DNA from: Candidatus Thorarchaeota archaeon
Lineage (GTDB): Archaea > Asgardarchaeota > Thorarchaeia > Thorarchaeales > Thorarchaeaceae
NCBI GenBank assembly: GCA_003345555.1
Contig: PRDJ01000040.1
Span: forward strand, 1-22,040
Length of the DNA: 22,040 nt
Direction: 5' to 3'
Shown: piece by piece, positions 6,507 to 21,405 of the stretch
Position numbering within the stretch: position 1 is the stretch's first letter
How the letters are laid out: every line of letters starts with the position of its first letter
Notes under the pieces: generated by a model
Database searches by the model: none
Seen by the model: the letters and a program-made list of their open reading frames with translations, nothing else
Told to the model about the DNA's origin: nothing
Translations under genes and position numbers: made by a program

Positions 6507-6535
6507 GCACCCTCTATGGTCCTTTCCAAGGGCGC
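6507..6535 (-). repeat. Intergenic hairpin repeat, copy I
   Basis: Minus strand GCGCCCT-TGG-AAAGGA-CCA-TAG-AGGGTGC: 7-bp + 3-bp stem with one G-T pair and loop AAAGGA. Shares AAAGGACCA(TA)GAGGGT with the copy at 19946-19978. Confidence 0.55.
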
Positions 6536-6582
6536 CGACTTGTCCAGAAGAGAATCCATCCAACTCCGATGATGCTGCCACT

Positions 6583-6732
6583 TCATCTACTGTGCCGCTT
6601 GGACGCTATGTCCATCATCTCCTCAAAGGGCATCTTCATTGGGGCACAGAGTCTCTTGAACTTCCTCTTGATCTTCAAGACTTTCAATCTTCTAGCTTTC
6701 ATGGGCTCGGCCTTCCTCTGTTGTGTTTCCAT
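6583..6732 (-). CDS. Putative small basic protein, 49 aa (39 aa from the second ATG at 6702)
   Basis: METQQRKAEPMKARRLKVLKIKRKFKRLCAPMKMPFEEMMDIASKRHSR; AAG/GAG-rich coding-like codons; no clear RBS; no family recognised. Confidence 0.35.
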   Translation of the reverse strand: METQQRKAEPMKARRLKVLKIKRKFKRLCAPMKMPFEEMMDIASKRHSR

Positions 6733-7107
6733 TGGGACTCGACAGACCGAGGAGAAGGTGCCGGAAGCGAGAAGGAACGGATTCAGGCCACCCGCGGAAG
6801 GGGAGAGAGTAGTCGAATACCGATTCGCTTGTGGCAACCGACCCGCCACCAAGCACCTTCCATACGTATTGCAGAGAGCAAGACACTATAAGCCAGCTGT
6901 GCAGCGGTTATCGGCAGTGATACCACTGGCTTGATTTGTACATTGAGTGTCCTTGCTGGCAAGGATTGACTCACAAGTCCATCTCTCCCTGCACGGATTG
7001 CCCTGATCCACATCAGGAATACACATGCCTGGCCCCTTTCCCGAAGAAGAGACCCCATCGATTCGAGAAGGGCAGCAAACGCTTATGGTTGTCTCCTCAG
7101 ATACCGG

Positions 7108-7129
7108 TCAGAGAAACCTTGGGGGAGGA
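7108..7129 (+). repeat. Inverted (plus-strand) partial copy F of the hairpin repeat, containing the clostripain RBS
   Basis: ACCTTGGGGGAGGA (7116-7129) is the exact reverse complement of 12068-12081 in copy E; its GGAGG lies 5 nt upstream of GTG 7134. Confidence 0.45.
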
Positions 7130-7133
7130 TGAA

Positions 7134-8375
7134 GTGAGGATTGGCAAAGCTGGCCTGGCATTGTGTCTCTTCGTAGCCGCCCTCATGGCGCTCCCGGTGA
7201 GCGTCGTGGGCGGACAGAACAACCATGGGGATGTCCAAAAGGACTGGACGCTGCTGATGTATTGGGATACGGACAACAGCCTTGAGATTTGCACGGAGTT
7301 CGCTTTGAGCACCTGGGAGGAATCGCTTCCAAGCAACGCTGATGTGAACATCGTCGCGCTCGTGGACCTGCTATCTGCGGATGGCACATGGATTTGGGAA
7401 ATTGTTGACGGCCAGAGGCACCTGGTCGATACGTGGGACGAACTGAACACATCGGATCCGGCAGTCCTTGAGATGTTCGTGGAGTATGGCATGACCGAGT
7501 TCCCGGCGGAGAAGACCCTGCTCGTGCTTCAGGATCACGGGTACAGCTGGAGAGGCATCTGTCAGGATGAGACCAATGGCGATCTGCTCATGCCAATAGA
7601 TGGTGTTCGCTCTGCACTGGAGTCTGCCAAGGCTGATATGGGCAACGGTGTTGATGTGCTCGCGTTCGACGCGTGCAACATGATGCTCCTTGAGGTCGTT
7701 TATGAGCTCAGTGACGTGGTGCCATACATCGTCGGCTCGCAGACGACGGTTTCGTACGACGGGCTCCCGTATGAGCTGTTCATCCCGGATCTCGTCGCGA
7801 ACCCAGACATGTCCCCGGCGGAACTCGCTGTTGACATCGTATACGACTATGCCGAATACTACAGCTCGAAGTGGGACTACTCGCACATGTTCAGGTATAA
7901 CCAGGACTTCGCGCCGGCATGCGCAGTGGACACCTCGAGGTTGGATGCCTTGGGAGACGCCTTCGGGCGGCTCTGCACAGTGCTCCAGCCGATAATCCAG
8001 GATCACATGAAGACAATCGAGGACGCGAGGGGATACTCGCTCATTGGCCAGTGGGCAAACATGGCAGGCTGGGAGTGGACCCCCGATATTGGCACATTCG
8101 TGAAGGGCCTGAGAGAGATTTCTGGGCACCCGGAGCTAGCCGCAGCTATTGACGAGTTCGAGATTGCGTACGACGTTGCGGTAATTGCCGAGGACCACAG
8201 CAAGAGGTATCATGACACTGTGACCGGTCTAAGCTTCTGGTTCCCGCCGTCTTTGGCGCAGTACAACTCGATGGGCTACTACTATTGCCAGCAGTTCGTG
8301 TACCATGACATAGGGCTGGACCTCGTCGCTGAGACCTCGTGGGTCGACTGTCTGATGACATACTACGGTTCGTAG
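7134..8375 (+). CDS. Clostripain-family cysteine peptidase (C11), secreted, 413 aa
   Basis: WTLLMYWDTDNSLE, catalytic His in LVLQDHG, catalytic Cys in LAFDACNM, and an N-terminal signal peptide (RIGKAGLALCLFVAALMALPVSVVG). Start placed at GTG 7134 behind GGGGGAGG. Confidence 0.92.
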   Translation: MRIGKAGLALCLFVAALMALPVSVVGGQNNHGDVQKDWTLLMYWDTDNSLEICTEFALSTWEESLPSNADVNIVALVDLLSADGTWIWEIVDGQRHLVDTWDELNTSDPAVLEMFVEYGMTEFPAEKTLLVLQDHGYSWRGICQDETNGDLLMPIDGVRSALESAKADMGNGVDVLAFDACNMMLLEVVYELSDVVPYIVGSQTTVSYDGLPYELFIPDLVANPDMSPAELAVDIVYDYAEYYSSKWDYSHMFRYNQDFAPACAVDTSRLDALGDAFGRLCTVLQPIIQDHMKTIEDARGYSLIGQWANMAGWEWTPDIGTFVKGLREISGHPELAAAIDEFEIAYDVAVIAEDHSKRYHDTVTGLSFWFPPSLAQYNSMGYYYCQQFVYHDIGLDLVAETSWVDCLMTYYGS

Positions 8376-8516
8376 ATGCGGATTCCAAACCTCTTCTTCG
8401 TCTCTCCTTCGTTTCTTGTGAATTGGGAGGATGCGTCAGGACTCCTTTCTGTCCACATTGTTCACCCTAGCGGATCAAGAGAGTTCTACCACACCCACCT
8501 CTTCTAGAGTCCGCAT

Positions 8517-8551
8517 CGCCTTTCCCCCGCAGGTGCCTTTCTTCAGGAAAG
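8517..8551 (-). repeat. Intergenic hairpin repeat, copy H
   Basis: Minus strand CTTTCCTGAAGAAAGGCACCTGCGGGGGAAAGGCG; 7-bp stem CTTTCCT/GGGAAAG; GGAAAGGCGA is identical to copy D. Confidence 0.6.
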
Positions 8552-8556
8552 AGTTT

Positions 8557-8595
8557 GGATATTAATTCACATTCAAGATTAAAATGTGCGAGGGC
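8557..8595 (-). repeat. att-like copy of the tRNA-Leu 3' end and trailer (copy A core)
   Basis: ATTAAAATGTGCGAGGGC (8578-8595) is identical to 21312-21329 and 17699-17716. GGATATTAAT (8557-8566) is identical to 17677-17686. Confidence 0.85.
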
Positions 8596-8613
8596 AGCTC
8601 GCTCGTGTCGTCA

Positions 8614-8648
8614 GCTTTCCTCCCCTGGGTCTTTTCCGAGGGAGGGAA
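8614..8648 (-). repeat. Intergenic hairpin repeat, copy A
   Basis: Minus strand TTCCCTCCCTCGGAAAAGACCCAGGGGAGGAAAGC; stem TTCC-(C)-TCCC...GGGA-GGAA, inner GG/CC, loop AAAAGA. Confidence 0.75.
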
Positions 8649-8668
8649 CACTCGTCTCCAACCCTGCC

Positions 8669-9409
8669 TTAGATCTGCTCTCTCGGTATGCAGCTCGGCT
8701 CGTGTGACACTCCATACTCGATGCCGAGCCTCTTCAGTCTCTCCTCGACTGCTGGATATAGTACCAGCTCCTCGATCTCGAAATCCTCGAACCCTATTCC
8801 TCTGAGCCTCTGCCTCAGCTTGCCGATGGCCTCATCAGAGCTGAAGCTCACCATGCATGCCGGATGTGCCCTGACGCCGTGATTCACAAGGTTCTCCAGT
8901 GCCCGTAGCTGCAGCCCGAAACCCTCAGACCTCGCCCCCGTGAGCTTCGAGAACTCCTCCTCGCAGGCTCCCTTCAAGCTCACTCTCACTCGCAAGTTTG
9001 GGAACTTCGACAAGTCCCCTGCATATGTCTCGTCGCAGCCTATGAGTATACCGTTGGTTTCCAGGATGAATACGTACTCTCTTGGGATGAGCTCCAGTAC
9101 TCTCAACAGATGATCCTTGGCAATAGTGGGTTCGTTCCCGCTTATCCTGATTTGGCGGAAGCCTTTACGCCTCGCCATAGCAACAAGATTTGAGGCTACT
9201 TCGTCGGGAGAGCACATCCTGCCGTATCTCTCGGGGTTGGCGACCTCCTTCCAGGACCAGCAGAAGACGCACTGAAGACAGCAGCCAACGCAGTCTGCCG
9301 TCGCGATGCCTCCGTAGAACCTGGCTGGCCTGAACCGATAGTAAGAGCGCATGTCGCCCCTGCACACGACTCTTGCTGTGGATTTGGCCAATTCGACTGG
9401 ATCGAACAT
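8669..9409 (-). CDS. Radical SAM protein (COG5014-like predicted Fe-S oxidoreductase), 246 aa
   Basis: RFYGGIATADCVGCCLQCVFCW contains CxxxCxxC; also RISGNEPT, LETNG and VRVSLKG. Confidence 0.92.
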   Translation of the reverse strand: MFDPVELAKSTARVVCRGDMRSYYRFRPARFYGGIATADCVGCCLQCVFCWSWKEVANPERYGRMCSPDEVASNLVAMARRKGFRQIRISGNEPTIAKDHLLRVLELIPREYVFILETNGILIGCDETYAGDLSKFPNLRVRVSLKGACEEEFSKLTGARSEGFGLQLRALENLVNHGVRAHPACMVSFSSDEAIGKLRQRLRGIGFEDFEIEELVLYPAVEERLKRLGIEYGVSHEPSCIPREQI

Positions 9410-9539
9410 TGAACGTTCTCAAATCGACATTCTGGATAGAAGAATCCTTCGAGCTGACGCTCGCTGACACTCCACACAAGAGAGAACCGAGCGAAGGGGA
9501 AACCAAAAGTCCAGCACTCGTACACGGTTGCCGTTCTAT

Positions 9540-9583
9540 CGCTTTCCTCCGAGGATGTGTGCCATGTCCTGTTCTGGAGACAT
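9540..9583 (-). repeat. Degenerate hairpin repeat, copy J (expanded spacer)
   Basis: Minus strand ATGTCTCC-AGAACAGGAC-N16-GAGGAAAGCG versus copy E ATGTCTCC-GAGAAGAC-N7-GAGGAAGGGCG. Confidence 0.4.
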
Positions 9584-9797
9584 GTCCCTCAGCGTCCAGT
9601 GTGTCGCCACGGAGCACTGTCGATAACTGGCTCGTTGGTTTCCGAGAAGGACATGAAGAGACGCCTTGAGCAATAGACCCCGCTCTCTGAAGGAACCCGA
9701 ATCCCGGACTGCTGCATGTTGTTTGGACATCGTCCATTGAATGGAATTGAGGTTCTCGACACTCCCATAACGAGTGGAATTGCCATTGCTAGATGAC

Positions 9798-9830
9798 AAA
9801 GAGAAAAAGAAAAAGGGTTGTGAAAAGGAT
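9798..9830 (-). terminator. Oligo-T terminator-like tract after the M28 peptidase gene
   Basis: Minus strand immediately after the stop reads ...ATCCTTTTCACAACCCTTTTTCTTTTTCTCTTT, typical of archaeal U-rich terminators. Confidence 0.55.
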
Positions 9831-9833
9831 TTC

Positions 9834-11897
9834 CTAGGTCGTCGCGAGCTGAATCAGCTGTGCTAGCACGGAATTGACTTGCATGATCTGCAGCGTCTCG
9901 ACGTCGATCCGATCCTGCAACACAGTCTTCTCAGACGCGAGTACAGTCTCCAGCGCCGCCTTCTCCCAGGAGATATCGGGCGACTGCACTTCCTCCTTCT
10001 GCCTGAGAGACACGTAGGCGTCGTAGATGTCAACGTACGGAGCGAGATGGCCCTGAGCGCCCCAGTTCAGATGCGGAGCATCTGGAGCATGCCTGTCGTT
10101 CTCCCACTCGAAGACTTCCTTGTCAAAGAAGGCATTCCACGTTAGCCCCACATTCCAGAGCTCGTCACAAGCATCATGCAGATTGCCGTCCTTCAGATAT
10201 CCGAGTGCGTTCGTCAACCATATCGCATCCCACTCGACCTGCTGAGTCGGATATATGACGCTGTCCCAACAGCTCAGGGCAGTCCACTCCCTGTTGATCA
10301 GCTGACTGGCCTCGGTCAGCAAGGCGTTTGCAGCATCTGCATCCCCCGCAGTCAACTTTGACGCTGCCGCATCATACTTCCGTGCGAGCGACTTGAACTC
10401 GGATATCGCTGGACCCAGCCCGCTTGCATCTACGCCAACGTAGGCGAAGTCATTTGCGTTGTAGCTCTTGGTGAGATCGACGGCGCGCTCCATGAACATG
10501 AACGGAAGTATCTTCGCGCTGTCAATTGCCTCCAAGAACTTGTGCATGACCTTCACCTGCATGGCCATGTCATCGTAGTGTATCAGGCCAAGGTTGTCCA
10601 TGTTGGTGTGGTAGATGGCGTCATATCCTGGAATCGTGTCCGAGAATGTTATCCCGGGGATGCCAGCGGCTGTCAGGGGCCATCCGTCCTGCCATGAGCT
10701 GAGCTCGGTAGTCACTTCCCATCCGTTCGGAAGCAGTGCTGGGTTCGCGCCAAAGACCGCCCTTGCCAGAGGTGCCAGCTGATAGTTCGCCCTGGCTGTG
10801 AACGGACCGGTCGAGCCGTCGAACCAACGACCTCCGATGCCTTCGATGTTCAGGAAGGCTACAGCCTCCATCGCCCAGTCGGGATGCGCCTGCGTAATCA
10901 TGTACCATGATCCGACCAGCCATTCATAGTAGGCATCGGTGTTGCCGTATTCCTCGCCCGTCGTCGCTATGAAGTAGAGGTCGTGCTCAGGCACGAAGCC
11001 CATCTTCTTCAAGGCCTTGGCCCAGGCCAGCAAGCCAGGTATTGCAGAAGTGTCGTCTGAGGCCCCGAAGAACCACGCATCATGGTGTCCCAGGATCAGG
11101 ATAGGATTCTGATGATTCCTTCCCGGATATACGCCCACGACGTTGTACCCAGAGCCTCCGTCCTCCGCAAGGGTCAACTTGACATTCGAAACCATCGTGC
11201 CGATGACGGGGCCATTAGCCATCATGCCCATGAGGCTGAAGCCGTCATTCCTCGATATGACGATCAAAGGAACTAGAGAGTCATCATAAGTAGCATCGAA
11301 ACTCCCGAGAGAGCTCGGCCACTCGTAATACACCGGATAGTTCATCGTGCTGATGATGACGCCTTTGGCACCATCAATGGTAGCCTGTTTCCCAATCAGG
11401 TTGACCCAGAAGTTGTCGGCATTCCAGTCACACAGCAAGAGCTTCCCCTGCACGCCGGTTGCAGGGTATTCCCCAGGCGTTCCCTGGCCCACATACACGA
11501 TCTCCCCGGTCAGGCCTGCCGGAGGAGTCCCTGGTACGCCACCCATCGAGGATGCCAAGAACTTGTAGGTGCCACTTGCACCGCTGACAGTCAAGCTCGC
11601 GCCCTTGAACTCCCAGGCATCAACAGGCACCCTTTCCATCCGGACATTCGATAGCCCGATCTTGACCATCTCCTGCTTGATGAAGGCCGCGCCCGCGTTT
11701 TCTGAGGAGCTTCCAGCCGCGCGGAATCCGTAGCCCGGCCATGTTCCTAGACCTACCAGCTTCTCTTCAACATACTTCTCATAGTTCTGGTCGATGTTGA
11801 GTTGTGGAGCAGGCTTCGCAACCACGAAGGACCCGCTAAAAGCCACGACTACAAAGACGAAGACTATGAGTGCTGCCAAGATTCTTCTACCAATCAT
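9834..11897 (-). CDS. Secreted M28-family zinc peptidase with PA domain, 687 aa
   Basis: Signal peptide (MIGRRILAALIVFVFVVVAFSGSFVVA); metal ligands GHHDAW, GASDD, TGEEYG, LNIEG and YHT; PA insert (GEIVYVG..G...GKLLL...A...GAKGVI). Start placed at ATG 11897. Confidence 0.92.
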   Translation of the reverse strand: MIGRRILAALIVFVFVVVAFSGSFVVAKPAPQLNIDQNYEKYVEEKLVGLGTWPGYGFRAAGSSSENAGAAFIKQEMVKIGLSNVRMERVPVDAWEFKGASLTVSGASGTYKFLASSMGGVPGTPPAGLTGEIVYVGQGTPGEYPATGVQGKLLLCDWNADNFWVNLIGKQATIDGAKGVIISTMNYPVYYEWPSSLGSFDATYDDSLVPLIVISRNDGFSLMGMMANGPVIGTMVSNVKLTLAEDGGSGYNVVGVYPGRNHQNPILILGHHDAWFFGASDDTSAIPGLLAWAKALKKMGFVPEHDLYFIATTGEEYGNTDAYYEWLVGSWYMITQAHPDWAMEAVAFLNIEGIGGRWFDGSTGPFTARANYQLAPLARAVFGANPALLPNGWEVTTELSSWQDGWPLTAAGIPGITFSDTIPGYDAIYHTNMDNLGLIHYDDMAMQVKVMHKFLEAIDSAKILPFMFMERAVDLTKSYNANDFAYVGVDASGLGPAISEFKSLARKYDAAASKLTAGDADAANALLTEASQLINREWTALSCWDSVIYPTQQVEWDAIWLTNALGYLKDGNLHDACDELWNVGLTWNAFFDKEVFEWENDRHAPDAPHLNWGAQGHLAPYVDIYDAYVSLRQKEEVQSPDISWEKAALETVLASEKTVLQDRIDVETLQIMQVNSVLAQLIQLATT

Positions 11898-12061
11898 GAG
11901 TCTTCCCCCCTTCGCGTCCTGCGAATTGCAGGACGAAGGCAAATCGAATTACGAATACAATAACCCTGTTGTTTACCATCGAGGGTCAATTCAGGAACTG
12001 TTCACGAGCGCCTGTAGGCAATTCTCTTGTTGCGATCCGAAAAATAGACCATGATTCTAGA

Positions 12062-12095
12062 CGCCCTTCCTCCCCCAAGGTCTTCTCGGAGACAT
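12062..12095 (-). repeat. Intergenic hairpin repeat, copy E
   Basis: Minus strand ATGTCTCCGAGAAGACCTTGGGGGAGGAAGGGCG; 8-bp stem TCTCCGAG/CTTGGGGG with three G-T pairs. Confidence 0.65.
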
Positions 12096-12142
12096 AGTGG
12101 GACCTACGAAGGACCGAAAGGGGTTCGAAAACGACCTCCACT

Positions 12143-15100
12143 TCACGGGTTGTAGGTCAGCACTCCGCTCGCGCTGCAATAGATCCAGTATCCCTGTCCC
12201 GGAACCAGCAAGAAATTGTTCATCGTCGGAATTGTGCTGATCCAGCTTCTGTAGGCCTTTGTTGCTGAATCCCAGGATACCACCATCTTGACGCCCCCTG
12301 CGACACTATACATCGCGGGGATGTCGCTCGCGTGCTTGGCCGTGTCGAGCGAGTTAAAGCCTATTAGCGCCCAACCCCCGCCGGCTGGGACGGCTACGGT
12401 CCTAGTCTGCGGAGTGCTCGGCAGGACTCCTTCGAGCGTGAGTGTTTCTGTCCCGCTTTGCACATAGATCCAATACCCCGTGCTGGGGACAATCGAGAAG
12501 TCCATCACCGACGGTGAGATTCCGACTATGTACATTCTGTAGGCTCCCGTAGCTGAGTTCCAACCACACACCACGTCGCCAGTATCAAGGCCGAGCGTGC
12601 TCGCTCTATGCCCTGACGCAACCACAGGTACGGCCACCAAGTTCCAGCCTTCGGATAGATTGAGGTAGAATGTGGCCGAGGCGGTGTCAAGCAGGATCGT
12701 GTCCGTGACAATCACTGAGTTGCCAGCTCTGTCCACGACCTGATAATAGACTGTCTTCATCCCATTCCCTGACAACAGGATCCAGGGCTTCGAGCTCACG
12801 GCGGGCTCCCATGAGGACCAGGACACGCCGTCGTTGCTATACCGCACCTTGTCCACATCGGATGTCGCATCGCTAGCGGTGAGCGAGAGCGCAACCGAAG
12901 TCGTGTTCGTATAGGCCGCCCCCGAGTTGATCACAATCGACGCTGTGGGCGCGACCCGGTCGAGCATTATGGAATCAGAATAGATGGCTGTATTGCCCGC
13001 GACGTCGCTGAACTGAACCTGAACCACCTTCAGGCCGCCGCCCGTGAGCGTCCACGCCTTTGTTGCCGAGAAGTTCTCCCACGTGCTCCAGCCCGAGGAA
13101 CCGTCGTTGAGCCGCATCTGCCCCATACCCGAGACCGCGTCGCTGGCCTTCAGGTCCAGCGTGACAGACGAGGAGTTGGTGTACTCCGCCCCGCTGTTGA
13201 CGACGATTGAGCCGGTCGGGGGCGTTCTGTCGAGCTTGATGCCTGTGAGGAGGCTGTGATCCTCGACGATGCCGTCGATGTCTTCGCTCCAGAATTCCAG
13301 CGTGTTGTTCGAGCCCTCGGTCGTGATCACCGGCAGGCCGTCGAGCTTCACCGTCTTCATCGGCCCGCCGTTGATGATGTAGTACGTGTCCAGAACCTGG
13401 CTTTCCGGAGCTGCTGCCGTCAGGATGATCGTAAAGTTCGAGGTGTGCCAGTAGTCGGTGTAGTCGTGGGTCGTCACGGGCCCGGTCGCCACTGGCCATG
13501 GGGCCATAAGCGGATATCTGTCGACGCTGTCGGAGTCGATCACCATAGTCGTGTCGCCTATGCCATCGCTCCCGGAGATGTCCTGGCCGGGGCCGCTGAA
13601 CGCATCCGAGCCAGAGTAGTTGCTCCAGTAGTTCCCGCCATTGGGGTAGTCATCATCCCACTGGTTCTGCGAGCCTGAATCGTCGTAGCCCCGAAGAACG
13701 TTGCCCAGGAGATTGTTGTGGAAGACCCTGATCGACGTCGAGCTCGCGATGTATATGGCGCATGTGTTGTTCCACAGATCGTTCGCCTTGATGGCGCCGT
13801 TCACCGAGCTCGTGACATATATCCCCCTGTAGCAGCATGATGAGACGTTATTCCTGACGATGTTGAATCCGTTGCACGAGCTAGCGAATATGCCGTTTCC
13901 GTTAGGGGCGGTGACGATGTTCGCCCTCACGTTGAACCCCGTGCACGAGATGACCTGAATAGCATCGCCTTTGCTCGAGACCACGTTGTTGGTGATGTTC
14001 GAGATCGTGATTCCGCTGAACACGACGCCCGTTATCTGAAGGTCCATGGCCACATTCTTCGTGACCTTCACGTCGAAGCCGGTCCAATCGACGACTATCC
14101 CGTAGTTGCTGATGGATGTGCCGGAGGCGTTGTTCCCGGAAACCACCGCGTGCTGGCAATTTGACACATGGATGTTCGCGGCCCTGTTCCGGACCGCGAT
14201 GTTGCCCGATATGAGGACATTCGTGCAGCCATTAGTGCAGATCCCGTCGCCGTTGGAGCTTCCAGACGCATTGTTCATGGAGACTGTTACGTTGGCACAG
14301 GAGACCGCTTCAATAAGGATGTTGGAGCAGTCGGAAATCGTGTTGCCAATGATGTTTGTCCATCCAGCAACCGTGGAGATCTGGACTGCTGAGCGGGACG
14401 AGCCGCCGTTGTTCGTGATGGTGTTTCGCGAAATCGTTAGATTCGAGCCTCCGGAAACGATTATGTTGTAGTTCGAGCCATGCGCCAGGCTACTGTTGTC
14501 GAGGGTGAAGTTCTCGCAGTAATTGGCTAGGACGCCATACATGTCCGTCCAGGAAACATTGGCCCCACGGATTGCGACATCCGCACAGTCATAGAACATC
14601 ATTCCCTGGCGCACGCGCGTCCCGGTTACATTCTCAATGCTCACGTCGCTCGCATACGCCATCTCGACAGCGACATCTGTATCACCGACTGACAGGTCCG
14701 CAGCAAGAACATGTGTGCAGTTCGCGACTATGAGCTGCCCAACAGGAATTCCCGTGACATCGACATGGCTCTCGTTCCTGAAGTAGTAGACCGGCTTTCC
14801 GTTGACCAGGTTGCTGGTAGCGATCGTGTGCGTATTGAATTCTTCCACGGATCCGTAGCCCATGTATGCCAATCCTGAGATCGAGATGCCATCCGACTCG
14901 AAGGTGTTGTTGACAATCGTCATCCCCACGGTGCCCTCGAGCGTGAGACCATGTTGGTCGTTCAAGAGGACGTTGTTCGCGATTGTGCAGCTGGAGGCCC
15001 AATAGAAGTTGATGCCCGTCGGTTCATCGGAGGCATTATTGCCTACGACGTTCACCTTTGAACAGAAATAGGCTACTGAGATTCCCACTTGCCAAGCTGA

Positions 15101-17023
15101 GGACACACTATTCTGCAGGATGTCTACCACCGAGCAGCCATAGATGCTGATTGAAATCGACATCTGGGCGAGATCATTGCGTGCGATGGTGGCGTTCGTG
15201 CACCAGGAGAGACTGAAGCTCCCTGCATTCCTGGCGGTGTTGTCCGCGATGAGTATGTTCGCGCTGTTTGCCAGGGCGATGCCACCGCCTCCATTGTTGA
15301 TGTGGTTGCCCACTATAGTGATGTTAGTGGCAGAGTCCATCGAGATTGCCCCGTTTGTATTGTCGGAGAAGTTGCTGCTCAGGACCCTGACGTTCGCGGA
15401 ATGGGCGGACACCAGAGTGTTTCCAACGTTTCCTCTGGCTGAACACTCAGTGACATCGATTCGTGAGCAGTGGTCGAGAAATATCGGGTTGTCGTAGTAG
15501 TTCGTGTTGTATGAGATGTCGCTGTCAGTGATATTCACGTCCTCGCAGTAGCAGAGGAGCAGAGCGTGATTATGCTCATGTGCAATCGTGACATTCTTCA
15601 TGATACAGTCGCTGACGAAGGCCATTTCGATGCCGATCTGCGTGCCGTCAATTGCCAGGTTCGCGACCTGCACATTCGTGTAGTTCGCTACGATCAGTTC
15701 ACCGACGACATCTTGATGGAAAGCCAGGTCTGTCCCGTCCTTGTAGTAATAGATTGGCTTTCCGCCAATCAGGTTGTCCGTCGTTATAGTGTGAGTGGCA
15801 TAGTAGTCGACCGAGTCTCCTTCCAGGTAGATACCACCAGAGGTGAAGACATTCCTGTTCACTTTGACGTCCTTGGAGTAGGACAGGCCAACACCAGCCG
15901 CATCCTCCCTCATGTCATTGTCGACGACAAGCGCACCGTCTGAATAGCTGAGGTAGATGCCGCTGCCCGAACTTGAGACATCGTTGGAGGCAACAATGAG
16001 GTCGCTCGAGTACGAACAGCTAATGCCGCCCGCACAATTCGAGGCATTGTTTCCGGTGATGTTGAATCCACCACAAGATGAGAGAGAGATTGCAGAACCC
16101 CAGCACCAAGAAAAGTTGTTGTCCAGAACAGTGGCGTTCCTGCAGCTCCCGCAAGATGCGCCAATGTAGGCATGCGATAGATCGTTCCCCGCGACCGTTG
16201 TATTCGCCGAGGAATACAGCCAGATGCCGCCATACACGCCCCCGAGATCATTCCCGATGATTGTGGAATTCACACAATTCTCGATGCTCATCCCGTTGGA
16301 GTATCCGAAGGGCGAGACACGATTGTTCGTCAGGGACGTGTTCCCGCAGAAGCTTGTACGGATTCCGGCGTCACCGCTCGAGGACACGTTGCATCCATTA
16401 ACGACGCTGTTCTCACTGTGCTCTATGAGGACGCTCTGGCGATTACCTGCAAACCTTGCCTGCTCAATCCGGCCGTTTGCCACACAGTCGAAGTGGATGC
16501 CCGAATAGCCGGCGGTCGTTGAGTTGATGTTCACGTCGCGTATGACGAAATAGGCGTCCGTGTTCCGGACGTCTATTCCTATCCCAAGAGAGGAATCGAT
16601 GTCCAACCCTTCGATTATGTAAGGGTCTGTGGCAGTCCCGCTTCCCGATACAACTCCGTTGGAGCTCGTGAAGTTGCTGTTCCCATCTATGAGGATGTTG
16701 GCGTGTGGCGTGCCGGATGTCCTTACTTTCATGGGCTCGTTGGGCGCGCGCTGGACGACAAACACACCCAGGGCGGAGATGATCATGACGACGGCCAACA
16801 CGACGGCAACGTGCTTTTGAGCGGGGGATCCGGAACGTCGTGACCCTGATCTGCGGATCCTGATGGAATTCTCGAGTCTATCAACGCCTGCAGAATTCGA
16901 TGCAGCGAGCGAGCGATCAGCGTTTGGCTCCTCAGCTGCCTCCTCCAGTCTTCCTTGCACTGCAAATCCCCCCAAATTCCGAATAGCGCCCGCGGAATCA
17001 CAACTGCGGTTGCCGTTTTGCAA
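12143..17023 (-). CDS. Large cell-surface protein: parallel beta-helix (NosD/CASH) repeats, Ig-like DxTPP domains and a duplicated GWxL...GYWI C-terminal domain, 1626 aa
   Basis: One hydrophobic segment (~aa 73-91); HANILIDGN...GSGT..DPYIIEG start of the beta-helix; many N-x-I-x-x-N repeats; GGNYWSNY.G.D..SG..QD..G.DGIGDT...DRYPL motif; two DR(T/V)AP/PP-x-SIV(V/I)NSGA.YTN repeats. Start codon uncertain. Confidence 0.9.
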   Translation of the reverse strand: MQNGNRSCDSAGAIRNLGGFAVQGRLEEAAEEPNADRSLAASNSAGVDRLENSIRIRRSGSRRSGSPAQKHVAVVLAVVMIISALGVFVVQRAPNEPMKVRTSGTPHANILIDGNSNFTSSNGVVSGSGTATDPYIIEGLDIDSSLGIGIDVRNTDAYFVIRDVNINSTTAGYSGIHFDCVANGRIEQARFAGNRQSVLIEHSENSVVNGCNVSSSGDAGIRTSFCGNTSLTNNRVSPFGYSNGMSIENCVNSTIIGNDLGGVYGGIWLYSSANTTVAGNDLSHAYIGASCGSCRNATVLDNNFSWCWGSAISLSSCGGFNITGNNASNCAGGISCSYSSDLIVASNDVSSSGSGIYLSYSDGALVVDNDMREDAAGVGLSYSKDVKVNRNVFTSGGIYLEGDSVDYYATHTITTDNLIGGKPIYYYKDGTDLAFHQDVVGELIVANYTNVQVANLAIDGTQIGIEMAFVSDCIMKNVTIAHEHNHALLLCYCEDVNITDSDISYNTNYYDNPIFLDHCSRIDVTECSARGNVGNTLVSAHSANVRVLSSNFSDNTNGAISMDSATNITIVGNHINNGGGGIALANSANILIADNTARNAGSFSLSWCTNATIARNDLAQMSISISIYGCSVVDILQNSVSSAWQVGISVAYFCSKVNVVGNNASDEPTGINFYWASSCTIANNVLLNDQHGLTLEGTVGMTIVNNTFESDGISISGLAYMGYGSVEEFNTHTIATSNLVNGKPVYYFRNESHVDVTGIPVGQLIVANCTHVLAADLSVGDTDVAVEMAYASDVSIENVTGTRVRQGMMFYDCADVAIRGANVSWTDMYGVLANYCENFTLDNSSLAHGSNYNIIVSGGSNLTISRNTITNNGGSSRSAVQISTVAGWTNIIGNTISDCSNILIEAVSCANVTVSMNNASGSSNGDGICTNGCTNVLISGNIAVRNRAANIHVSNCQHAVVSGNNASGTSISNYGIVVDWTGFDVKVTKNVAMDLQITGVVFSGITISNITNNVVSSKGDAIQVISCTGFNVRANIVTAPNGNGIFASSCNGFNIVRNNVSSCCYRGIYVTSSVNGAIKANDLWNNTCAIYIASSTSIRVFHNNLLGNVLRGYDDSGSQNQWDDDYPNGGNYWSNYSGSDAFSGPGQDISGSDGIGDTTMVIDSDSVDRYPLMAPWPVATGPVTTHDYTDYWHTSNFTIILTAAAPESQVLDTYYIINGGPMKTVKLDGLPVITTEGSNNTLEFWSEDIDGIVEDHSLLTGIKLDRTPPTGSIVVNSGAEYTNSSSVTLDLKASDAVSGMGQMRLNDGSSGWSTWENFSATKAWTLTGGGLKVVQVQFSDVAGNTAIYSDSIMLDRVAPTASIVINSGAAYTNTTSVALSLTASDATSDVDKVRYSNDGVSWSSWEPAVSSKPWILLSGNGMKTVYYQVVDRAGNSVIVTDTILLDTASATFYLNLSEGWNLVAVPVVASGHRASTLGLDTGDVVCGWNSATGAYRMYIVGISPSVMDFSIVPSTGYWIYVQSGTETLTLEGVLPSTPQTRTVAVPAGGGWALIGFNSLDTAKHASDIPAMYSVAGGVKMVVSWDSATKAYRSWISTIPTMNNFLLVPGQGYWIYCSASGVLTYNP

Positions 17024-17053
17024 TCGCTATGAATGGGTTAAGAATCTTTCGGT

Positions 17054-17089
17054 GCATTTCCGCCCTTGTGGTCTTTTCTTGAGCTGGAA
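17054..17089 (-). repeat. Intergenic hairpin repeat, copy K
   Basis: Minus strand TTCCAGCTCAAGAAAAGACCACAAGGGCGGAAATGC; stem TTCC-(A)-GCTC...GGGC-GGAA; GAAAAGACC is identical to copies A and D. Confidence 0.7.
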
Positions 17090-17195
17090 TTCCCACATTG
17101 TCGGAGCTGAAGGCTTATCACAAGGAATAGCCATCGATTCTATCACAACAAAGAAGTGGATAACGCAAAGAGGACAGTAGGAGGAGAAAGCGGCG

Positions 17196-17669
17196 ATGAG
17201 ATCGCTCTTGATTGTTGCTTCGTATCATCACGGAAACACCGAGAAGATTGCGAGCGTGTTTGCCCGGGTCCTTGAGGCGCAGACAAGGACGCCCAACCAG
17301 ATACATCCTGAAGAGCTTCAAGAGTATGATCTCATCGGCTTTGGCTCAGGCATCTACGATGCAAAGCACCATACTGATATTCTCGACCTTGCCGATAGAC
17401 TACCGCAAGTCACCAACAAGCTGGCATTCATTTTCTCAACTAGTAGTCACATAGGTGATGACCAAGTCGCCAAAGACCACTCCACACTCAGGGAGAAGCT
17501 GAAGTCGAAAGGTTACGTGATCGTTGACGAATTCAGCTGCAAGGGTTTCAATACGAATAGTTTCCTTGGGCATTTTGGGGGCATGAACAAGGGCAGGCCG
17601 AATGCGGATGACCTCATGCATGCGGAAGCGTTTGCCACGAACCTGAAGCAGACCACGCATGCCACATAG
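17196..17669 (+). CDS. Flavodoxin-family protein, 157 aa
   Basis: FMN phosphate loop SYHHGNTEKIA, DLIGFGSGIY, AFIFST and GRPN..DL..A..FA; RBS GGAGGAG upstream. Confidence 0.92.
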   Translation: MRSLLIVASYHHGNTEKIASVFARVLEAQTRTPNQIHPEELQEYDLIGFGSGIYDAKHHTDILDLADRLPQVTNKLAFIFSTSSHIGDDQVAKDHSTLREKLKSKGYVIVDEFSCKGFNTNSFLGHFGGMNKGRPNADDLMHAEAFATNLKQTTHAT

Positions 17670-17676
17670 CCAACCC

Positions 17677-17722
17677 GGATATTAATCTGAATTCTTAGAT
17701 TAAAATGTGCGAGGGCCCGGAT
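17677..17722 (-). repeat. att-like copy of the tRNA-Leu 3' end and trailer (copy B core)
   Basis: ATTAAAATGTGCGAGGGCCCGGAT (17699-17722) is identical over 24 bp to 21312-21335; adjacent palindrome ATATTAATCTG-AATTCT-TAGATTAAAAT at 17679-17706. Confidence 0.9.
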
Positions 17723-17773
17723 ATTTGCCCGGAATTTGCCGGCATTTAAACCCTCCACCTATAGAATTCATAA

Positions 17774-17782
17774 GTGCGAGGG
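17774..17782 (-). repeat. Short remnant of the tRNA-Leu 3' end
   Basis: GTGCGAGGG matches 21320-21328. It is short, and is supported only by lying within 60 bp of copy B and 80 bp of copy D. Confidence 0.4.
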
Positions 17783-17853
17783 AGAAATCGACGATCGATT
17801 ATTGACATCGAATCTACTGGCAATTAAAGGTCCCAGCAATAACTGCCGGCATG

Positions 17854-17909
17854 AAATGTGCGAAGTATTCCGCTCGTACCGTCGCCTTTCCTCCCGGTCT
17901 TTTCTGAGG
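17854..17909 (-). repeat. Hairpin repeat copy D plus degenerate att core; homologous to 8582-8641
   Basis: Minus strand CCTCAGAAAAGACC---GGGAGGAAAGGCGACGGTACGAGCGGAATACTTCGCACATTT aligns with copy A at about 46 of 60 columns (hand alignment). Confidence 0.8.
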
Positions 17910-17921
17910 CTCAGGATTAGG

Positions 17922-19775
17922 TCATGTCATGTTCTTCTTGAGGAAGCCGACAATACTCTTGATTTGACGAGCATTCTCTCTCCAATCGCATCTGGAGGAG
18001 ATGTGCCCTGCCTTGTCCTCAAGGATGAACTCGTGAGGGTGATTCATATCTTCCAGTTTCTTGACGAACCTCAGTACAGGCTGTATTGGACATCTTGCAT
18101 CTGTCTTTCCACCCTTGATTAAGACCGGAGCCGTGATCTTCGATATGTGAGTAATCGGGGACCTGCTTCGAAGCAACTCTCTTTTCTTGGAGACCGACCC
18201 TCCAAACTGCTCTTCGATAAACGACTTGAATGTGGCATCTGCCAATTCGTTCATCTCCAACCAGTCCGTTATTGGAACACCTGCGACGCCAGCGGCAAAG
18301 ACTTTCGGCTTCGTCGTCAGAGCCATCAGGGTCATGTATCCGCCGTAGGAGAAGCCGCCAATCGCTATCTTCGTAGCTTGAATGTCTTTCTGTCTGCGAA
18401 GCCATTCGGCGGCATACACTTCATCCTCCAGGTCACCTCCACCAAGGTCTCCAACATTCAGCCTCCTGAACTCGGCTCCGTAGCCGGTCGAGCCTCTGAC
18501 ATTCGGGGCGATGACTGCGAACCCGCTCAACGAAAAAGCGTGCAAGGAATCCGCAGATATCCAATCATCAAAAACCTGCCAGTTCGGACCCCCGTGCACC
18601 CAGACTATTGCGGGACTCGGCCCTGCCTTTGACGCCGAAGGCACGTACCATGCGTGAATATCGCGTCCATCAAAGGATTTGTACCAAACGGACCTTGGAG
18701 TGGCTAGCTTGGTCAGGTCGATACCATACTTCTGCGAGGTCAAAGCTACTGCAGACTTTGCGCCACTTCTTAGCCAATAGATTGCCGGTGGGGAAGTCAG
18801 CGACGAGTGGAGCGCGGCTACTGATCCGTCTGAAGTCACCTTCATGCATGTGATTGTGCCCTCGGGAAACGGGAGATTCTTGCCCTTCTTCTGGGTCAGT
18901 CTATGCTCACGGACGACGCTGCGGCTGTGCTTGCTGACGATGTAGAACACTCTATCCGCTTTAGGTCCCCACACCGGCCATCCAAGAACCTCTTCACCAA
19001 CCTCCAAATCCAAGAACTGCCGTGACTGGCTCCGAAGATCCTGGATGACAACCTGGCGTACTCCCTTTGCATCGCTCTCAAAGGCGAGCCTCTTGTCGTC
19101 AGGGGAGAAGGACGGAAAGTTGTCTCTAGAGTCTTTCTTTACACTGTAGGTGGTCATATCCGATGGATTGCCCCTCCTGAAGACCATGATCTCTTCACTC
19201 TTGGGACTGGCCGTCGCATCGCACGCAATGTATTTGCCGTCATGAGAATAGGTCACAGTTCCGATCGGAGGCGTCGCCTCCTTCAGCATGAAACACTCGC
19301 CGGTTGCCGTGTCGATAGTCTCCAGACCGCAGGATTCCTTCTTGGTGATCGCACGAGTGACTTCCTTTGCGTTCGGACTCCAATCGAAGAGCCCCCACAT
19401 CCTGTATGGGGTCTTGGTGATCCTCCTTGGCCTTCCACCCTCTGTTGGCAGCAGATACATGTCAAATGTCTCGTTTCCATCACGGTCTTTAGGGAAGACG
19501 AACTCGCGTCCGTTCGGAGAGAAAAGTCCGAGATCTACGGGATCTTCGCCTTTGGTCAGTTGAACTGGCTTCGAGCAAGGCTTCGTATGCTGGCAATAGA
19601 TTTCGAGATTCCCCGTCCGGTTCGAGGAATAGAGCAAGGTCTTCCCATCTCGAGTAACGTCGAAGACCTCGTAGAACGGAGATATCACTGGAATCTTGAG
19701 CACGTCCAGGTACGACGGCAGAATGTTGACCACCCGCTTGGGCCAATTCCATTCCATCTCCTTAGGTCTTTCCAT
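17922..19775 (-). CDS. S9-family peptidase (acylaminoacyl-peptidase/dipeptidyl peptidase-like) with beta-propeller, 617 aa
   Basis: VHGGP, NVRGSTGYG, nucleophile GFSYGG, Asp in D-ARC, His in AGH; N-terminal WD40/TolB-like FSPDxK repeats; no signal peptide seen. Confidence 0.95.
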   Translation of the reverse strand: MERPKEMEWNWPKRVVNILPSYLDVLKIPVISPFYEVFDVTRDGKTLLYSSNRTGNLEIYCQHTKPCSKPVQLTKGEDPVDLGLFSPNGREFVFPKDRDGNETFDMYLLPTEGGRPRRITKTPYRMWGLFDWSPNAKEVTRAITKKESCGLETIDTATGECFMLKEATPPIGTVTYSHDGKYIACDATASPKSEEIMVFRRGNPSDMTTYSVKKDSRDNFPSFSPDDKRLAFESDAKGVRQVVIQDLRSQSRQFLDLEVGEEVLGWPVWGPKADRVFYIVSKHSRSVVREHRLTQKKGKNLPFPEGTITCMKVTSDGSVAALHSSLTSPPAIYWLRSGAKSAVALTSQKYGIDLTKLATPRSVWYKSFDGRDIHAWYVPSASKAGPSPAIVWVHGGPNWQVFDDWISADSLHAFSLSGFAVIAPNVRGSTGYGAEFRRLNVGDLGGGDLEDEVYAAEWLRRQKDIQATKIAIGGFSYGGYMTLMALTTKPKVFAAGVAGVPITDWLEMNELADATFKSFIEEQFGGSVSKKRELLRSRSPITHISKITAPVLIKGGKTDARCPIQPVLRFVKKLEDMNHPHEFILEDKAGHISSRCDWRENARQIKSIVGFLKKNMT

Positions 19776-19945
19776 CAGTTTCTCGAAGATTCACGAAGTC
19801 AGGAGATTATCCCTGCGATTGATGGTTAAGGACAGTTCGTGTCTTGTTTTGGACATCACAGGGCAAATCCAAAGAGAAGGCGGTAAGAGTGTGAGTCTGC
19901 TCGGAGAGCTGGATCATTCTTTGCTGGCAAGAATCCCGTTTCTTC

Positions 19946-19978
19946 CGCCTTTCTTACCCTCTGGTCCTTTGCAGGATA
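19946..19978 (-). repeat. Intergenic hairpin repeat, copy G
   Basis: Minus strand TATCCTGCAAAGGACCAGAGGGTAAGAAAGGCG; stem TATCCT/AGGGTA; ends in GAAAGGCG like copies D and H. Confidence 0.55.
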
Positions 19979-20089
19979 GCCTGATGATTGCAGAGAATTC
20001 GCAACTCTAGTGACCCCGTCCTTGGAACGACGCAATGAATATCTGAGGATAGGTGATTGATCCTCAAGGAGCCTGGGAGTTGAAACAGA

Positions 20090-21232
20090 ATGAAGGGCAG
20101 ACGCATAGCGACCTGTTGGGCAATGCTAGCAATCGCCGTTCTGGGAATGACCGCTATTTCTGGTACGAGCTCTGCTCATCTGCCTATGTACTCTCCGGGC
20201 GGATCCACGATGAGCACTGCTCTGAAGATTCCAGATGCAAACACATCGTATGGCATAACCGCGGAGTTTCCATCTTCCACCAATCGAATCCAGTTCTACG
20301 CATTCTCAGTGTACGCGGGGCAAGACCTTTCCTTCGAACTGGACGTCCCAGCGACATCAAGCCTTCAGGATTTCGCGCCAGTGATCCTCCTCATTGGCCC
20401 GGGCCTCCATTCTCCCGACAGCAATACATCAAGAATAATCGATGAATTCAGCATCACACTATCATCTGGAGACGGGGCGACTATCTATCTCTACAATGGC
20501 ACTGAGAACGTCAGAGTGTTCGAACCTTTCACCCAGACAAACCTGTGGGTTCGCCAGAGCGGGGAGGTTACACTCCCCTCTACGGGGATCTACTACCTTG
20601 CTGTTGCTGTTCCTCAGGGGTGGCCGCACGATGCCACCTCGGGATTCGGCAAGTACATTCTGGCTCCAGGCACAGTAGAGAGGTTCACTCTGCTTGACTA
20701 TATGTCTATTCCAATAGACTGGGTGAAGTGGCACGCATTCTGGGGACAATCCGTTCTGTTGCTTATGGTTCCCACCTTCTTGGTCGTCGTCATTGGAGTC
20801 ACGGGAACTTGGTACTATCTCAAGAATCGCCGACCAGAGATGCTCGAGTCCAAGCCGAGCGTCACCAGAACCGGGTTCTATCTCGGAGCAGTTGGCGCGA
20901 TGTTGATGGTGGGCAGCACCGTCAACCAAATGGCGCTGCTCTTCTACTACACCAGGTTCTCGCTGGAGACGGCAGACTACATAGAGCTTATGCTACAAGT
21001 CATTGGACTCGTCCTCGGCATCCTTGCATTTCGTATGGTCTTCGGCTTGATGCAACCGAGATCCACTGCAAGGAAGGTTCTCAGCATCGCTCTTCTAGTT
21101 TTGATCGGGTTCGCTGCACTGATGGTCGGAGCTGGTTGGCTCGTCGGTCCAGTATTGTTTGCTTGTGCGGGCTTGACCGAGCTCTTGTCGGCAAATAGAA
21201 CTGAGCGAAGAACCGATGCGTTGGAACGCTGA
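20090..21232 (+). CDS. Hypothetical membrane protein (signal peptide, extracellular beta-rich domain, ~5 C-terminal TM helices), 380 aa
   Basis: Hydrophobic N-terminus ending in SSA-H; soluble region with FEPFTQT and G.YYLAV; several hydrophobic C-terminal segments. Confidence 0.85.
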   Translation: MKGRRIATCWAMLAIAVLGMTAISGTSSAHLPMYSPGGSTMSTALKIPDANTSYGITAEFPSSTNRIQFYAFSVYAGQDLSFELDVPATSSLQDFAPVILLIGPGLHSPDSNTSRIIDEFSITLSSGDGATIYLYNGTENVRVFEPFTQTNLWVRQSGEVTLPSTGIYYLAVAVPQGWPHDATSGFGKYILAPGTVERFTLLDYMSIPIDWVKWHAFWGQSVLLLMVPTFLVVVIGVTGTWYYLKNRRPEMLESKPSVTRTGFYLGAVGAMLMVGSTVNQMALLFYYTRFSLETADYIELMLQVIGLVLGILAFRMVFGLMQPRSTARKVLSIALLVLIGFAALMVGAGWLVGPVLFACAGLTELLSANRTERRTDALER

Positions 21233-21293
21233 ACATCATGCAAGAGTGTCCCATCTATTCTCAACTATGATCCTTTTCCCAAGAAGCTTGCGC

Positions 21294-21335
21294 ATTAATC
21301 CAAATCTATGAATTAAAATGTGCGAGGGCCCGGAT
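21294..21335 (-). repeat. Chromosomal att-like core (copy C): tRNA-Leu 3' end plus trailer and ATTAAT arm
   Basis: ATTAAT-N12-ATTAAAATGTGCGAGGGCCCGGAT; source of the copies at 17699 and 8578. Confidence 0.85.
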
Positions 21336-21405
21336 TTGAACCGGGGGACTCCTGCGAGAACAGATCTTGAGTCTGTCGCCTTTGACCGAGCTTGGCTACC
21401 CTCGC
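21321..21405 (-). tRNA. tRNA-Leu (anticodon CAA), 85 nt, CCA not encoded
   Basis: GCGAGGG/CCCTCGC acceptor stem plus discriminator A; D-arm GCC..GGC; anticodon arm ACAGA-CTCAAGA-TCTGT; variable arm CTC-GCAG-GAG; T-arm CCCGG-TTCAAAT-CCGGG; T4 tract directly downstream. Confidence 0.98.

Follow-up and report, generated by a model that had tools for sequence, protein, structure and literature searches.

A conserved linear motif at gene boundaries in variable arrays of an uncultured archaeal lineage

The contig and its lineage

The window analysed here is the whole of contig C40 (PRDJ01000040.1; 22,040 nt), one of 82 contigs in a genome bin deposited as Candidatus Thorarchaeota archaeon. Copies of a short repeat lie on the minus strand in the spacers of its array region (6507-21285), and an earlier, sequence-only reading took them for hairpins that delimit single-gene cassettes accreting behind a tRNA-Leu gene. 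We find that the repeats are a real family and that they form a linear sequence motif of 32-37 nt, not hairpins. The genes of the array region are orf6569 and a C11 peptidase on the plus strand, a radical SAM protein and an M28 peptidase on the minus strand, a 1626-aa NosD/beta-helix protein (minus), a flavodoxin (plus), an S9 peptidase (minus) and an unknown 380-aa protein (plus). The sole tRNA gene of the window, tRNA-Leu(CAA), occupies 21320-21405 on the minus strand with a TATA-like CTTTATTA ~30 nt upstream. Housekeeping-type genes (an aminotransferase, a Rieske protein, ArsR and two saccharopine dehydrogenases) lie to the left of the array region. Near-identical assemblies found by exact-protein look-up have the same gene order throughout the array region; on one short contig the flavodoxin neighbours are apparently different, which probably reflects a fragmented S9 gene.

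Sequence comparisons show that the contig was assigned to the wrong bin. In composition, C40 and a second contig, C51, stand apart from all the others (G+C content 55.2% vs 51.1 ± 0.9%), ranking second and first, respectively, in tetranucleotide distance among the 82 contigs. The window aminotransferase is 77% and 71% identical to proteins of G074, a complete genome of the lineage of 'Euryarchaeota archaeon RBG_19FT_COMBO_56_21', compared to 33-37% for the same-genus genomes of the bin. At the DNA level no synteny with the nominal relatives of the bin was found; just the tRNA and the flavodoxin matched, in other contexts. TATA-like boxes precede the tRNA-Leu, ArsR and M28 genes (TTTATTA, TTTATATT and TTATTGTATT), suggesting that the contig is archaeal. 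A simple scan of the window for sigma-70 promoters and intrinsic terminators performed no better than on shuffled sequence, the method being unsuited to an archaeon. On these grounds we assign C40 to the uncultured archaeal lineage of 'Euryarchaeota archaeon RBG_19FT_COMBO_56_21', whose own genome is referred to here as G073, and regard C40 and C51 as mis-binned contigs from a G073/G074-like archaeon. The analysis thus exposes two mis-binned contigs in the source genome bin.

The distribution of the motif follows this assignment. The motif model had no match in the 60 genomes of the nominal family, 28 matches in G073 and 1-49 matches in each of 20 of the 41 relatives of G073 searched. An exact search for the core GAAARGACC across the bin gave 54 matches, and only those on C40 had the motif flanks. 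The apparent confinement of the motif to one island of the bin is therefore an artefact of mis-binning.

The motif, its copies and its arrays

All seven strings that had been listed as clear copies (A, D, E, K, I, G and H) were present exactly at their coordinates on the minus strand. As an independent test of membership we used an nhmmer profile built from 106 copies of other genomes, with the window left out. Five copies (A, D, E, K and I) were recovered by this profile, each on the minus strand. Copy A (8612-8645) was matched at 8615-8641 with 17.8 bits (E 7e-5 in the window) and ranked second bin-wide in a leave-one-out search; it lies 21 nt past the radical SAM stop codon. Copy D (17882-17912; matched at 17882-17909 with 17.5 bits; leave-one-out rank 3) lacks the ATA of the core and lies 13 nt past the S9 peptidase stop codon. 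Copy E (12062-12094; 12062-12084, 12.4 bits) is placed between the stop codon of the NosD-like gene and the M28 gene, and a degenerate orthologous copy of E occurs upstream of M28 at a metagenome locus (L025). Copy K (17054-17085; 17054-17078, 10.6 bits) sits in the divergent spacer between the flavodoxin and NosD-like genes. Copy I (6511-6532; 6511-6531, 9.7 bits, profile positions 2-22), the leftmost of the array, is partial and holds the 5' two-thirds of the motif only, CCCTTGGAAAGGACCATAGAGG.

The remaining copies fared less well. Claimed copy G (19946-19977, minus) scored 3.9 bits (E 1.7) with the independent profile and ranked 99 in the leave-one-out search; it is doubtful, being either a degenerate relic or chance. 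Claimed copy H (8515-8548, minus; 1.3 bits, rank 305) is also doubtful and resembles the sequence after the true tRNA trailer (21267-21285). Both scored only under models trained on G and H themselves. The three weak copies at 9540-9583, ~6709-6737 and ~21267-21285 gave no match to the independent profile, so that three to five of the ten copies listed by the sequence-only reading are not members of the family; its statement that 1-6.4 kb holds no copies was borne out by the same profile. A profile of the seven copies, run on the whole bin, found the seven and one copy on C51, and nothing else. When each was left out in turn genome-wide, A, D and E ranked second to third and I eighth, and K, H and G were at chance. 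The window copies are weaker than those of the relatives and several have no adjacent co-oriented gene, suggesting that this array is old and partly decayed. Neither G and H nor the three weak copies score above chance, and most copies fold no better than shuffles, which might speak for a chance resemblance among purine-rich intergenic stretches. For the core family we give this explanation next to no weight: A, D, E, K and I were recovered by a profile from other genomes, and more than 100 near-identical copies occur in relatives, which refutes it.

The motif reads (T)nnnCCTCGGAAAAG(A/C)CCATAGGGGAGGAAAGGCGAT, with the consensus CCTCGGAAAAG(A/C)CCATAGGGGAGGAAAGGCGAT. M28 peptidase relatives were fetched from metagenomes and the genome collection to look for further copies, and the first copies of these loci gave TnnnCCTCGGAAAAG(A/C)CCATAGGGGAGGAAAGGCGAT. 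The profile trained on the window scored the copies beside M28 homologues of other metagenomes above its own training set. Two GGAAA(A/G)G direct half-repeats flank a CCATAGGGG centre. The edges of the motif are sharp, and across 111 aligned copies from at least six genomes ~28 nt hardly vary. The supposed conserved purine loop and its variable stem turn out to be a linear stretch of almost constant sequence, GGAAAAGMCCATAGGGGAGGAAAGGCGAT, preceded by a variable 5' flank.

Folding analyses gave no support to a hairpin. When single sequences were folded on both strands and compared with shuffles, only A (z -1.7) and I (z -2.8) folded better, and D, E, H, G and K did not. RNAalifold predicted no pairs on 17 or on 111 aligned copies, and pair counts for three candidate stems were likewise negative. 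For the CCTC/GAGG stem, 78.7% of cells in the 111 copies were paired, a level reached by 335 of 500 shuffles; with the partner moved by one column the value rose to 84.5%, above the true register. A double-sided change was found in just one cell of this stem, so there is no covariation. The proposed folding as single-stranded DNA, the compensatory change between A and K and the argument from strand-specific G-T pairs accordingly lack support at the level of the family. At the gathering threshold Rfam matched only the tRNA in the window, an E-value scan of a 20-kb array found nothing at the motif positions, and our literature search found no paper describing the motif. The family therefore appears new: it is genuine, has no Rfam match and is cassette-array-like in its working, without being a member of the integron family. 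A coding role for the motif was rejected, as one frame contains TAG and copies differ by indels of 1-4 nt. A motif-led ORF (open reading frame) of 26 codons, predicted to encode a very basic peptide (MVRHAKPKHREY...KKKKVV), was seen in two places (L074:10417-10530 and L073:5709-5829; G073:C29). Its TGA stop is formed by columns 1-3 of the next motif, and TGA recurs at these columns in many copies.

Copies are clustered in arrays that share one orientation. Over 38 kb of the complete G074 genome 23 of 23 copies are on the same strand, as are 10 of 10 on G073:C4; orientation is uniform in nearly every locus. Of the 38 matches in G074, the 26 listed all fall within seven regions that make up 186 kb of 1.98 Mb. 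As the sequence-only reading had noted, gene boundaries are punctuated by copies whose orientation is fixed whatever the direction of the neighbouring gene. Most arrays of the relatives lie away from tRNAs, which does not fit the idea that linkage to a tRNA defines the arrays. Their cargo includes peptidases (C1, M20, M28, S33 and S9), redox proteins (FMN reductase, nitroreductase, flavodoxins and ferredoxin-type proteins), Zn-ribbon proteins, parts of ABC transporters, PKD proteins, a TIR protein, transposases and integrase-like genes.

Two array loci are worth describing on their own. At L087 (G074:C1, ~1,604-1,611 kb), two oppositely oriented motif arrays diverge from a 1.5-kb centre with a 277-aa ORF, and every gene of the left arm runs opposite to the motif. 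At L072:3458-4748 (G073:C4), a tRNA-Ala gene is immediately followed by a 393-aa Rep-like gene (a weak match to REP_ORF2-G2P), a TIR-domain gene and the 10-copy array, which includes a 413-aa integrase-like gene. This tRNA-Ala locus may be an integrated plasmid or virus merging into the array.

The canonical integron, as a cluster of attC sites lacking an integron integrase (CALIN), would also produce such arrays, its divergent attC sites being recombined as folded single strands by IntI. The co-oriented arrays with about one site per gene and the accessory cargo fit this explanation, canonical attC integrons exist in Archaea (PMC9668308), and a gene for a 287-aa Phage_integrase-like (tyrosine-recombinase-like) protein diverges from the start of one G074 array. 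In the motif, by contrast, no R''/L''/L'/R' boxes can be found, and the consensus shows none of the RYYYAAC/GTTRRRY ends, whose lack the sequence-only reading had correctly pointed out. Sequence is conserved instead of structure, the reverse of attC, and the motif is tied to the downstream rather than the upstream gene. Moreover, the 287-aa gene has no orthologue in G073 or in another relative, G079, and is truncated in a third, G076. We therefore regard a canonical integron as very improbable.

The two sides of the motif differ in their spacing to genes. Among 93 strong copies, 40 are followed by a co-oriented ORF whose start codon lies 10-29 nt past the 3' edge and has its own Shine-Dalgarno sequence in the gap; starts at 30-60 nt are almost absent. 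Towards the gene on the 5' side the spacing varies widely (0-94 nt). In 26 of 79 strong copies the next feature after the motif is the 3' end of a reversed gene, and in at least nine of these the stop codon lies within 1-20 nt. Reversed genes in the arrays have no reversed motif. Some copies stand in tandem at intervals of 30-160 nt without an intervening gene, and partial copies were also found.

This tight spacing brings in the main rival explanation, that the motif is a shared expression signal of accessory genes, either a non-canonical promoter with an operator or a 5' leader. In this scheme GGAAAAG would replace a TATA box, with the transcription start immediately past ...GCGAT and the G-rich stretch as the binding site of a single regulator; modules would look bounded because the motif is the first functional element of each gene. 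The 40 closely spaced copies with their separate Shine-Dalgarno sequences are consistent with this explanation, as are the duplicated or homologous blocks, which usually consist of the motif and the downstream gene. GGAAAAG lies ~22-28 nt before the end of the motif and is the only A-rich block there. The usual distance from TATA box to transcription start in archaea is ~22-28 nt. The motif ends in T and a variable base, like a pyrimidine-purine initiator; no other TATA box occurs between motif and gene, and no AT-rich or TATA signal is found at a fixed distance upstream of the motif. However, about a third of the strong copies, A and D of the window among them, face the 3' end of a reversed gene, often at 1-20 nt. 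The reversed genes of the arrays have no motif of their own, and the tandem copies without a gene between them are equally hard to explain as promoters. Next to the boxes that C40 has at tRNA-Leu, ArsR and M28, GGAAAAGMCC makes a poor TATA box, and near-invariance over 28 nt across species exceeds that of basal promoters. The cargo also spans unrelated functions (peptidases, redox proteins, transposases, a TIR protein and Zn-ribbon proteins). Taken together, a shared expression signal is possible but on the whole unlikely.

Turnover, mobile elements and the proposed role of the motif

Comparison of close relatives revealed turnover of the arrays. G074 and G076 are 91-95% identical and syntenic over multiple kilobases outside the arrays. 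On G076:C55, flanks that are conserved with G074 enclose six motifs in 2.6 kb; the G074 counterpart has two motifs in 1.9 kb and unrelated content. G076:C8 strings together the G074 blocks of 50.6-48.3, 28.9-28.1 and 40.3-39.8 kb in permuted order and the same orientation, with motif copies between the blocks. Over all loci compared, 41 of 173 unique homology endpoints fell in motif windows, which make up 1.5% of the sequence. Blocks running downstream begin at motif columns 6-18 and blocks running upstream end at columns 30-43, which places the junction in or at the motif but no more finely. The window itself shows the same pattern: its positions 17722-17058 (tRNA trailer, flavodoxin and spacer) correspond to L077:5047-5712 of G073 with 85% identity, and the homology enters motif K and stops inside it, with unrelated genes beyond. 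A comparison of cassette content, order and breakpoints between strains was the test that the sequence-only reading had itself proposed, and both pairs (G074/G076, and K vs G073) gave the outcome it had anticipated, with modules that differ in presence or order and homology breakpoints at the motif.

The motif is also a target of mobile elements. Two insertion sequences (ISs) of the IS110 family (DEDD_Tnp_IS110) in G074 (L082:4496-5819 and L082:11219-12514, on G074:C1 at ~349.5-350.8 kb and 356.2-357.5 kb) interrupt the motif between columns 22 and 23, directly after CCATAG. The position is the same both times, and joining the left and right flanks (AAAGMCCATAG / GGGAGGAAAGG) restores the motif consensus. 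The half motifs that hold only the 3' part have an IS110-like right end (...GCATAACAT) before them. We had considered half motifs as footprints of cassette crossover and rejected this, the IS110-like right end upstream indicating IS insertion. In addition, G074 carries a 1074-bp IS that has a DDE transposase (DDE_Tnp_1) and terminal inverted repeats of 18 bp. Two insertions of this IS (L082:14202-15275 and L084:11131-12204, in opposite relative orientations) abut the 5' edge of a motif exactly and show an 8-bp target duplication, TCGCCTCG. One motif copy carries a 34-nt mini-insert.

Other short elements were observed in the same genomes. The non-coding region at the right end of the IS110 elements, ~180-215 nt long, occurs as many solo copies in several genomes. 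CCATAG- and AATAGAGG-like stretches within it are candidate guide segments for a bridge or seek RNA. Another two short elements, multi-copy and ~100-165 nt long (L082:10516-10680 and L082:854-954 in G074), are present on many contigs of G073-G090, and one of them ends in a motif copy.

IS110-family elements target repetitive extragenic palindromic (REP) sequences and attC sites in bacteria (PMC11208160, PMC12288879, PMC1525189, PMC11187229), and the insertions in the archaeal motif mirror this targeting. A further rival is that the motif is a REP-like selfish or structural repeat, an insulator or an RNA-processing site, kept by its own spread or upkeep and with no role in moving genes. The arrays would then be gene-dense flexible islands in which copies accumulate, and IS110 would use the motif as a safe landing site. 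In favour of this explanation, the motif is short, intergenic and multi-copy (20-50 per genome), tandem and partial copies occur, and the IS110-family insertions are at a fixed internal position, as are those of ISPpu9, ISPpu10 and IS621 in REPs (PMC12288879; PMC1525189; PMC11208160). The defining feature of REPs, a palindrome or hairpin, is lacking in the motif, however, and no transposase of the Y1 or REP-associated tyrosine transposase (RAYT) type was found in G073 or the complete G074. PF01797 was found in 6 of the 41 relatives, compared to 20 of 41 for the motif. The copies are clustered in few co-oriented arrays rather than spread over the chromosome, and the tight one-sided spacing to the gene boundary is a further difficulty. 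We consider a REP-like role quite unlikely.

Collectively, the conservation of ~28 nt in sequence, the fixed orientation, the tight placement on the 3' side, the turnover and the IS110 targeting are consistent with a boundary or joining element recognised as a duplex. Our preferred interpretation, to which we give a probability of roughly 0.45, is that the motif serves a cassette system resembling integrons, as its boundary or recombination element. It would lie at the upstream border of modules with one or a few genes, within accessory-gene arrays that are co-oriented and hypervariable, and would be read as double-stranded DNA, by sequence rather than fold. Modules would be inserted, lost and reordered at this junction, giving an integron-like array with a different type of site, one that travels with the downstream gene. 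The motif may additionally supply or insulate expression signals. We infer recombination at the motif, either site-specific or by short homology, and the identity of the enzyme likewise; the suggestion of the sequence-only reading that a recombination site is mobilised in trans keeps the same standing, no recombinase having been identified. A more specific proposal is an archaeal site-specific cassette system with a ~32-nt duplex site, in which two direct GGAAARG half-sites surround the CCATAGGGG core. A yet-unrecognised recombinase (tyrosine or new), possibly acting in trans, would capture, excise and reorder single-gene cassettes, making the system an independently evolved analogue of integrons. 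We regard this stronger form as doubtful.

Several observations weigh against the preferred interpretation. A short, constrained distance to start codons is what an expression signal would show as well, and the M28 gene of the window has its own conserved TATA-type promoter, with motif E ~90 nt upstream. The crossover point cannot be placed, since BLAST alignments continue across the conserved motif. One Zn-ribbon block shared by G074 and G076 stops 130-160 nt short of the next motif, and the right edge of a G074/G076 variable locus has no motif. Some enrichment of endpoints is expected for any intergenic feature, and the G076 assembly is fragmented, so that seemingly missing cassettes may be unassembled and cassette absence is weak evidence. 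Neither an excised circle nor a precise empty cassette site was seen. No recombinase co-occurs with the motif among the families compared in the 41 relatives (the 413-aa integrase, IS110, Y1_Tnp and Resolvase). IS110 transposases are present in just 10 of the relatives, suggesting that the motif does not depend on IS110. Y1/HUH transposases and resolvases (12 of 41) are both absent from G073 and G074. The 413-aa integrase family is mostly located beside tRNAs, with the motif in 3 of 25 such loci.

The tRNA-Leu side of the window shows a different kind of repeat, which consists of the tRNA-Leu 3' end and ~30-45 nt of trailer and occurs three times, on the minus strand. The first copy (21294-21335; CCCTCGCACATTTTAAT...GGATTAAT) is the tRNA-Leu 3' end and trailer itself. 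The second (17681-17722), comprising the 3' end of the T-arm and acceptor plus the trailer, is 83% identical to the first over 42 nt and orthologous to the true tRNA trailer of G073. The third (8568-8602; acceptor 3' end and trailer) begins 12 nt after copy A of the motif and has the doubtful copy H just 3' of it. The trailer of the second copy contains a 7-8-7 palindrome, TTAATCT-N8-AGATTAA, which looks like the core site of a recombinase. Degenerate att-like remnants are at ~17766-17782 and ~17850-17866. Copies A and D align to each other past the limits of the motif, each just 5' of a tRNA-3'-like repeat, which for D is a degenerate remnant. Reading A or D as a decayed tRNA was rejected: only the last ~8-25 nt and the trailer match tRNA-Leu, and the A unit has no T-arm.

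Between the first two repeats lies a block of 3.6 kb (17723-21293) with the S9 peptidase (17922-19775, minus) and the 380-aa protein (20090-21232, plus). In G073, which keeps orf21485 and tRNA-Leu beside the flavodoxin, the tRNA-Leu gene directly abuts the flavodoxin orthologue and the block is absent. Positions 17723-21293 of the window are therefore an insertion bracketed by tRNA-3' repeats. The block represents a classical integration at a tRNA 3' end, a process separate from the motif. Accretion behind tRNA-Leu, as claimed in the sequence-only reading, is thus real for at least one block, which is bounded by tRNA 3'-end repeats and not by the motif. Searches with Pfam, NCBIfam and PHROGs assigned none of the window ORFs to an integrase family. 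The 380-aa ORF, which other assemblies call at 340-348 aa, had no match in these databases.

Some features of individual genes in the window were also noted. The NosD/beta-helix surface-type protein (12143-17023, minus), a 1626-aa ORF here, has 1547, 1605 and 1610 aa in near-identical assemblies, which suggests repeat-number variation. Upstream of the M28 peptidase, ~80 nt (11897-11976, minus) are conserved in four genomes and contain the TATA-like TTATTGTATT, a GTCCTGC-N5-GCAGGAC hairpin and a GGGGGG Shine-Dalgarno sequence. The M28 protein likely starts at the ATG at 11897 (687 aa) rather than at the TTG at 11942, and a T-rich terminator follows its stop codon.

Likeness to known systems

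If the motif is a recombination junction, it would represent a second, independently evolved route to integron-like arrays, native to Archaea. It would then bear on how uncultured archaea acquire and reshuffle accessory genes, in this case a cargo with many peptidases, redox proteins and surface proteins. Under the more modest interpretations too, the motif offers a new marker, simple to search for, of the flexible gene content in this lineage, and a natural, highly conserved target of presumably RNA-guided IS110 recombinases in Archaea.

Four known systems can be compared with the motif arrays. Integrative elements targeted to tRNAs resemble the window in that three direct repeats of the tRNA-Leu 3' end bracket gene blocks and the trailer carries the 7-8-7 palindrome. 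This likeness concerns the tRNA side only; the purine-rich motif is another sequence and is mostly found away from tRNAs, and the window encodes no integrase. Regulon promoter and operator motifs of archaea, such as the Thermococcales glycolytic motif (TGM) and SurR boxes, share the single orientation and the fixed short distance to the start codon. In contrast, our motif is much longer and more invariant, lies beside the 3' ends of reversed genes and in tandem without a gene, and accompanies functionally incoherent cargo.

REPs and bacterial interspersed mosaic elements (BIMEs) with their RAYTs are likewise short, multi-copy, intergenic and lineage-specific, and are position-specific targets of the IS110 family. 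The motif differs in not being palindromic and in the lack of a RAYT (Y1_Tnp) in G074 or G073. It has 20-50 copies in few co-oriented arrays, compared to hundreds of dispersed copies, and it is found at the junctions of shuffled modules.

Integron arrays (attC/IntI, super-integrons and CALINs), known with canonical attC sites in Archaea as well (PMC9668308), also have tandem, co-oriented sites at about one per gene, which keep their orientation when a gene is reversed. In both, the accessory cargo is mixed with few canonical promoters, content and order differ between close relatives, and IS110/IS1111-family elements target the sites. The sites themselves are not alike. The motif is linear, 32-37 nt long and conserved in sequence, with no hairpin, R or L boxes or extrahelical bases, whereas attC is conserved in its fold. 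The motif goes with the tightly spaced gene on its 3' side, whereas attC belongs to the upstream ORF, and no integrase of the IntI type appears to be linked to the motif arrays.

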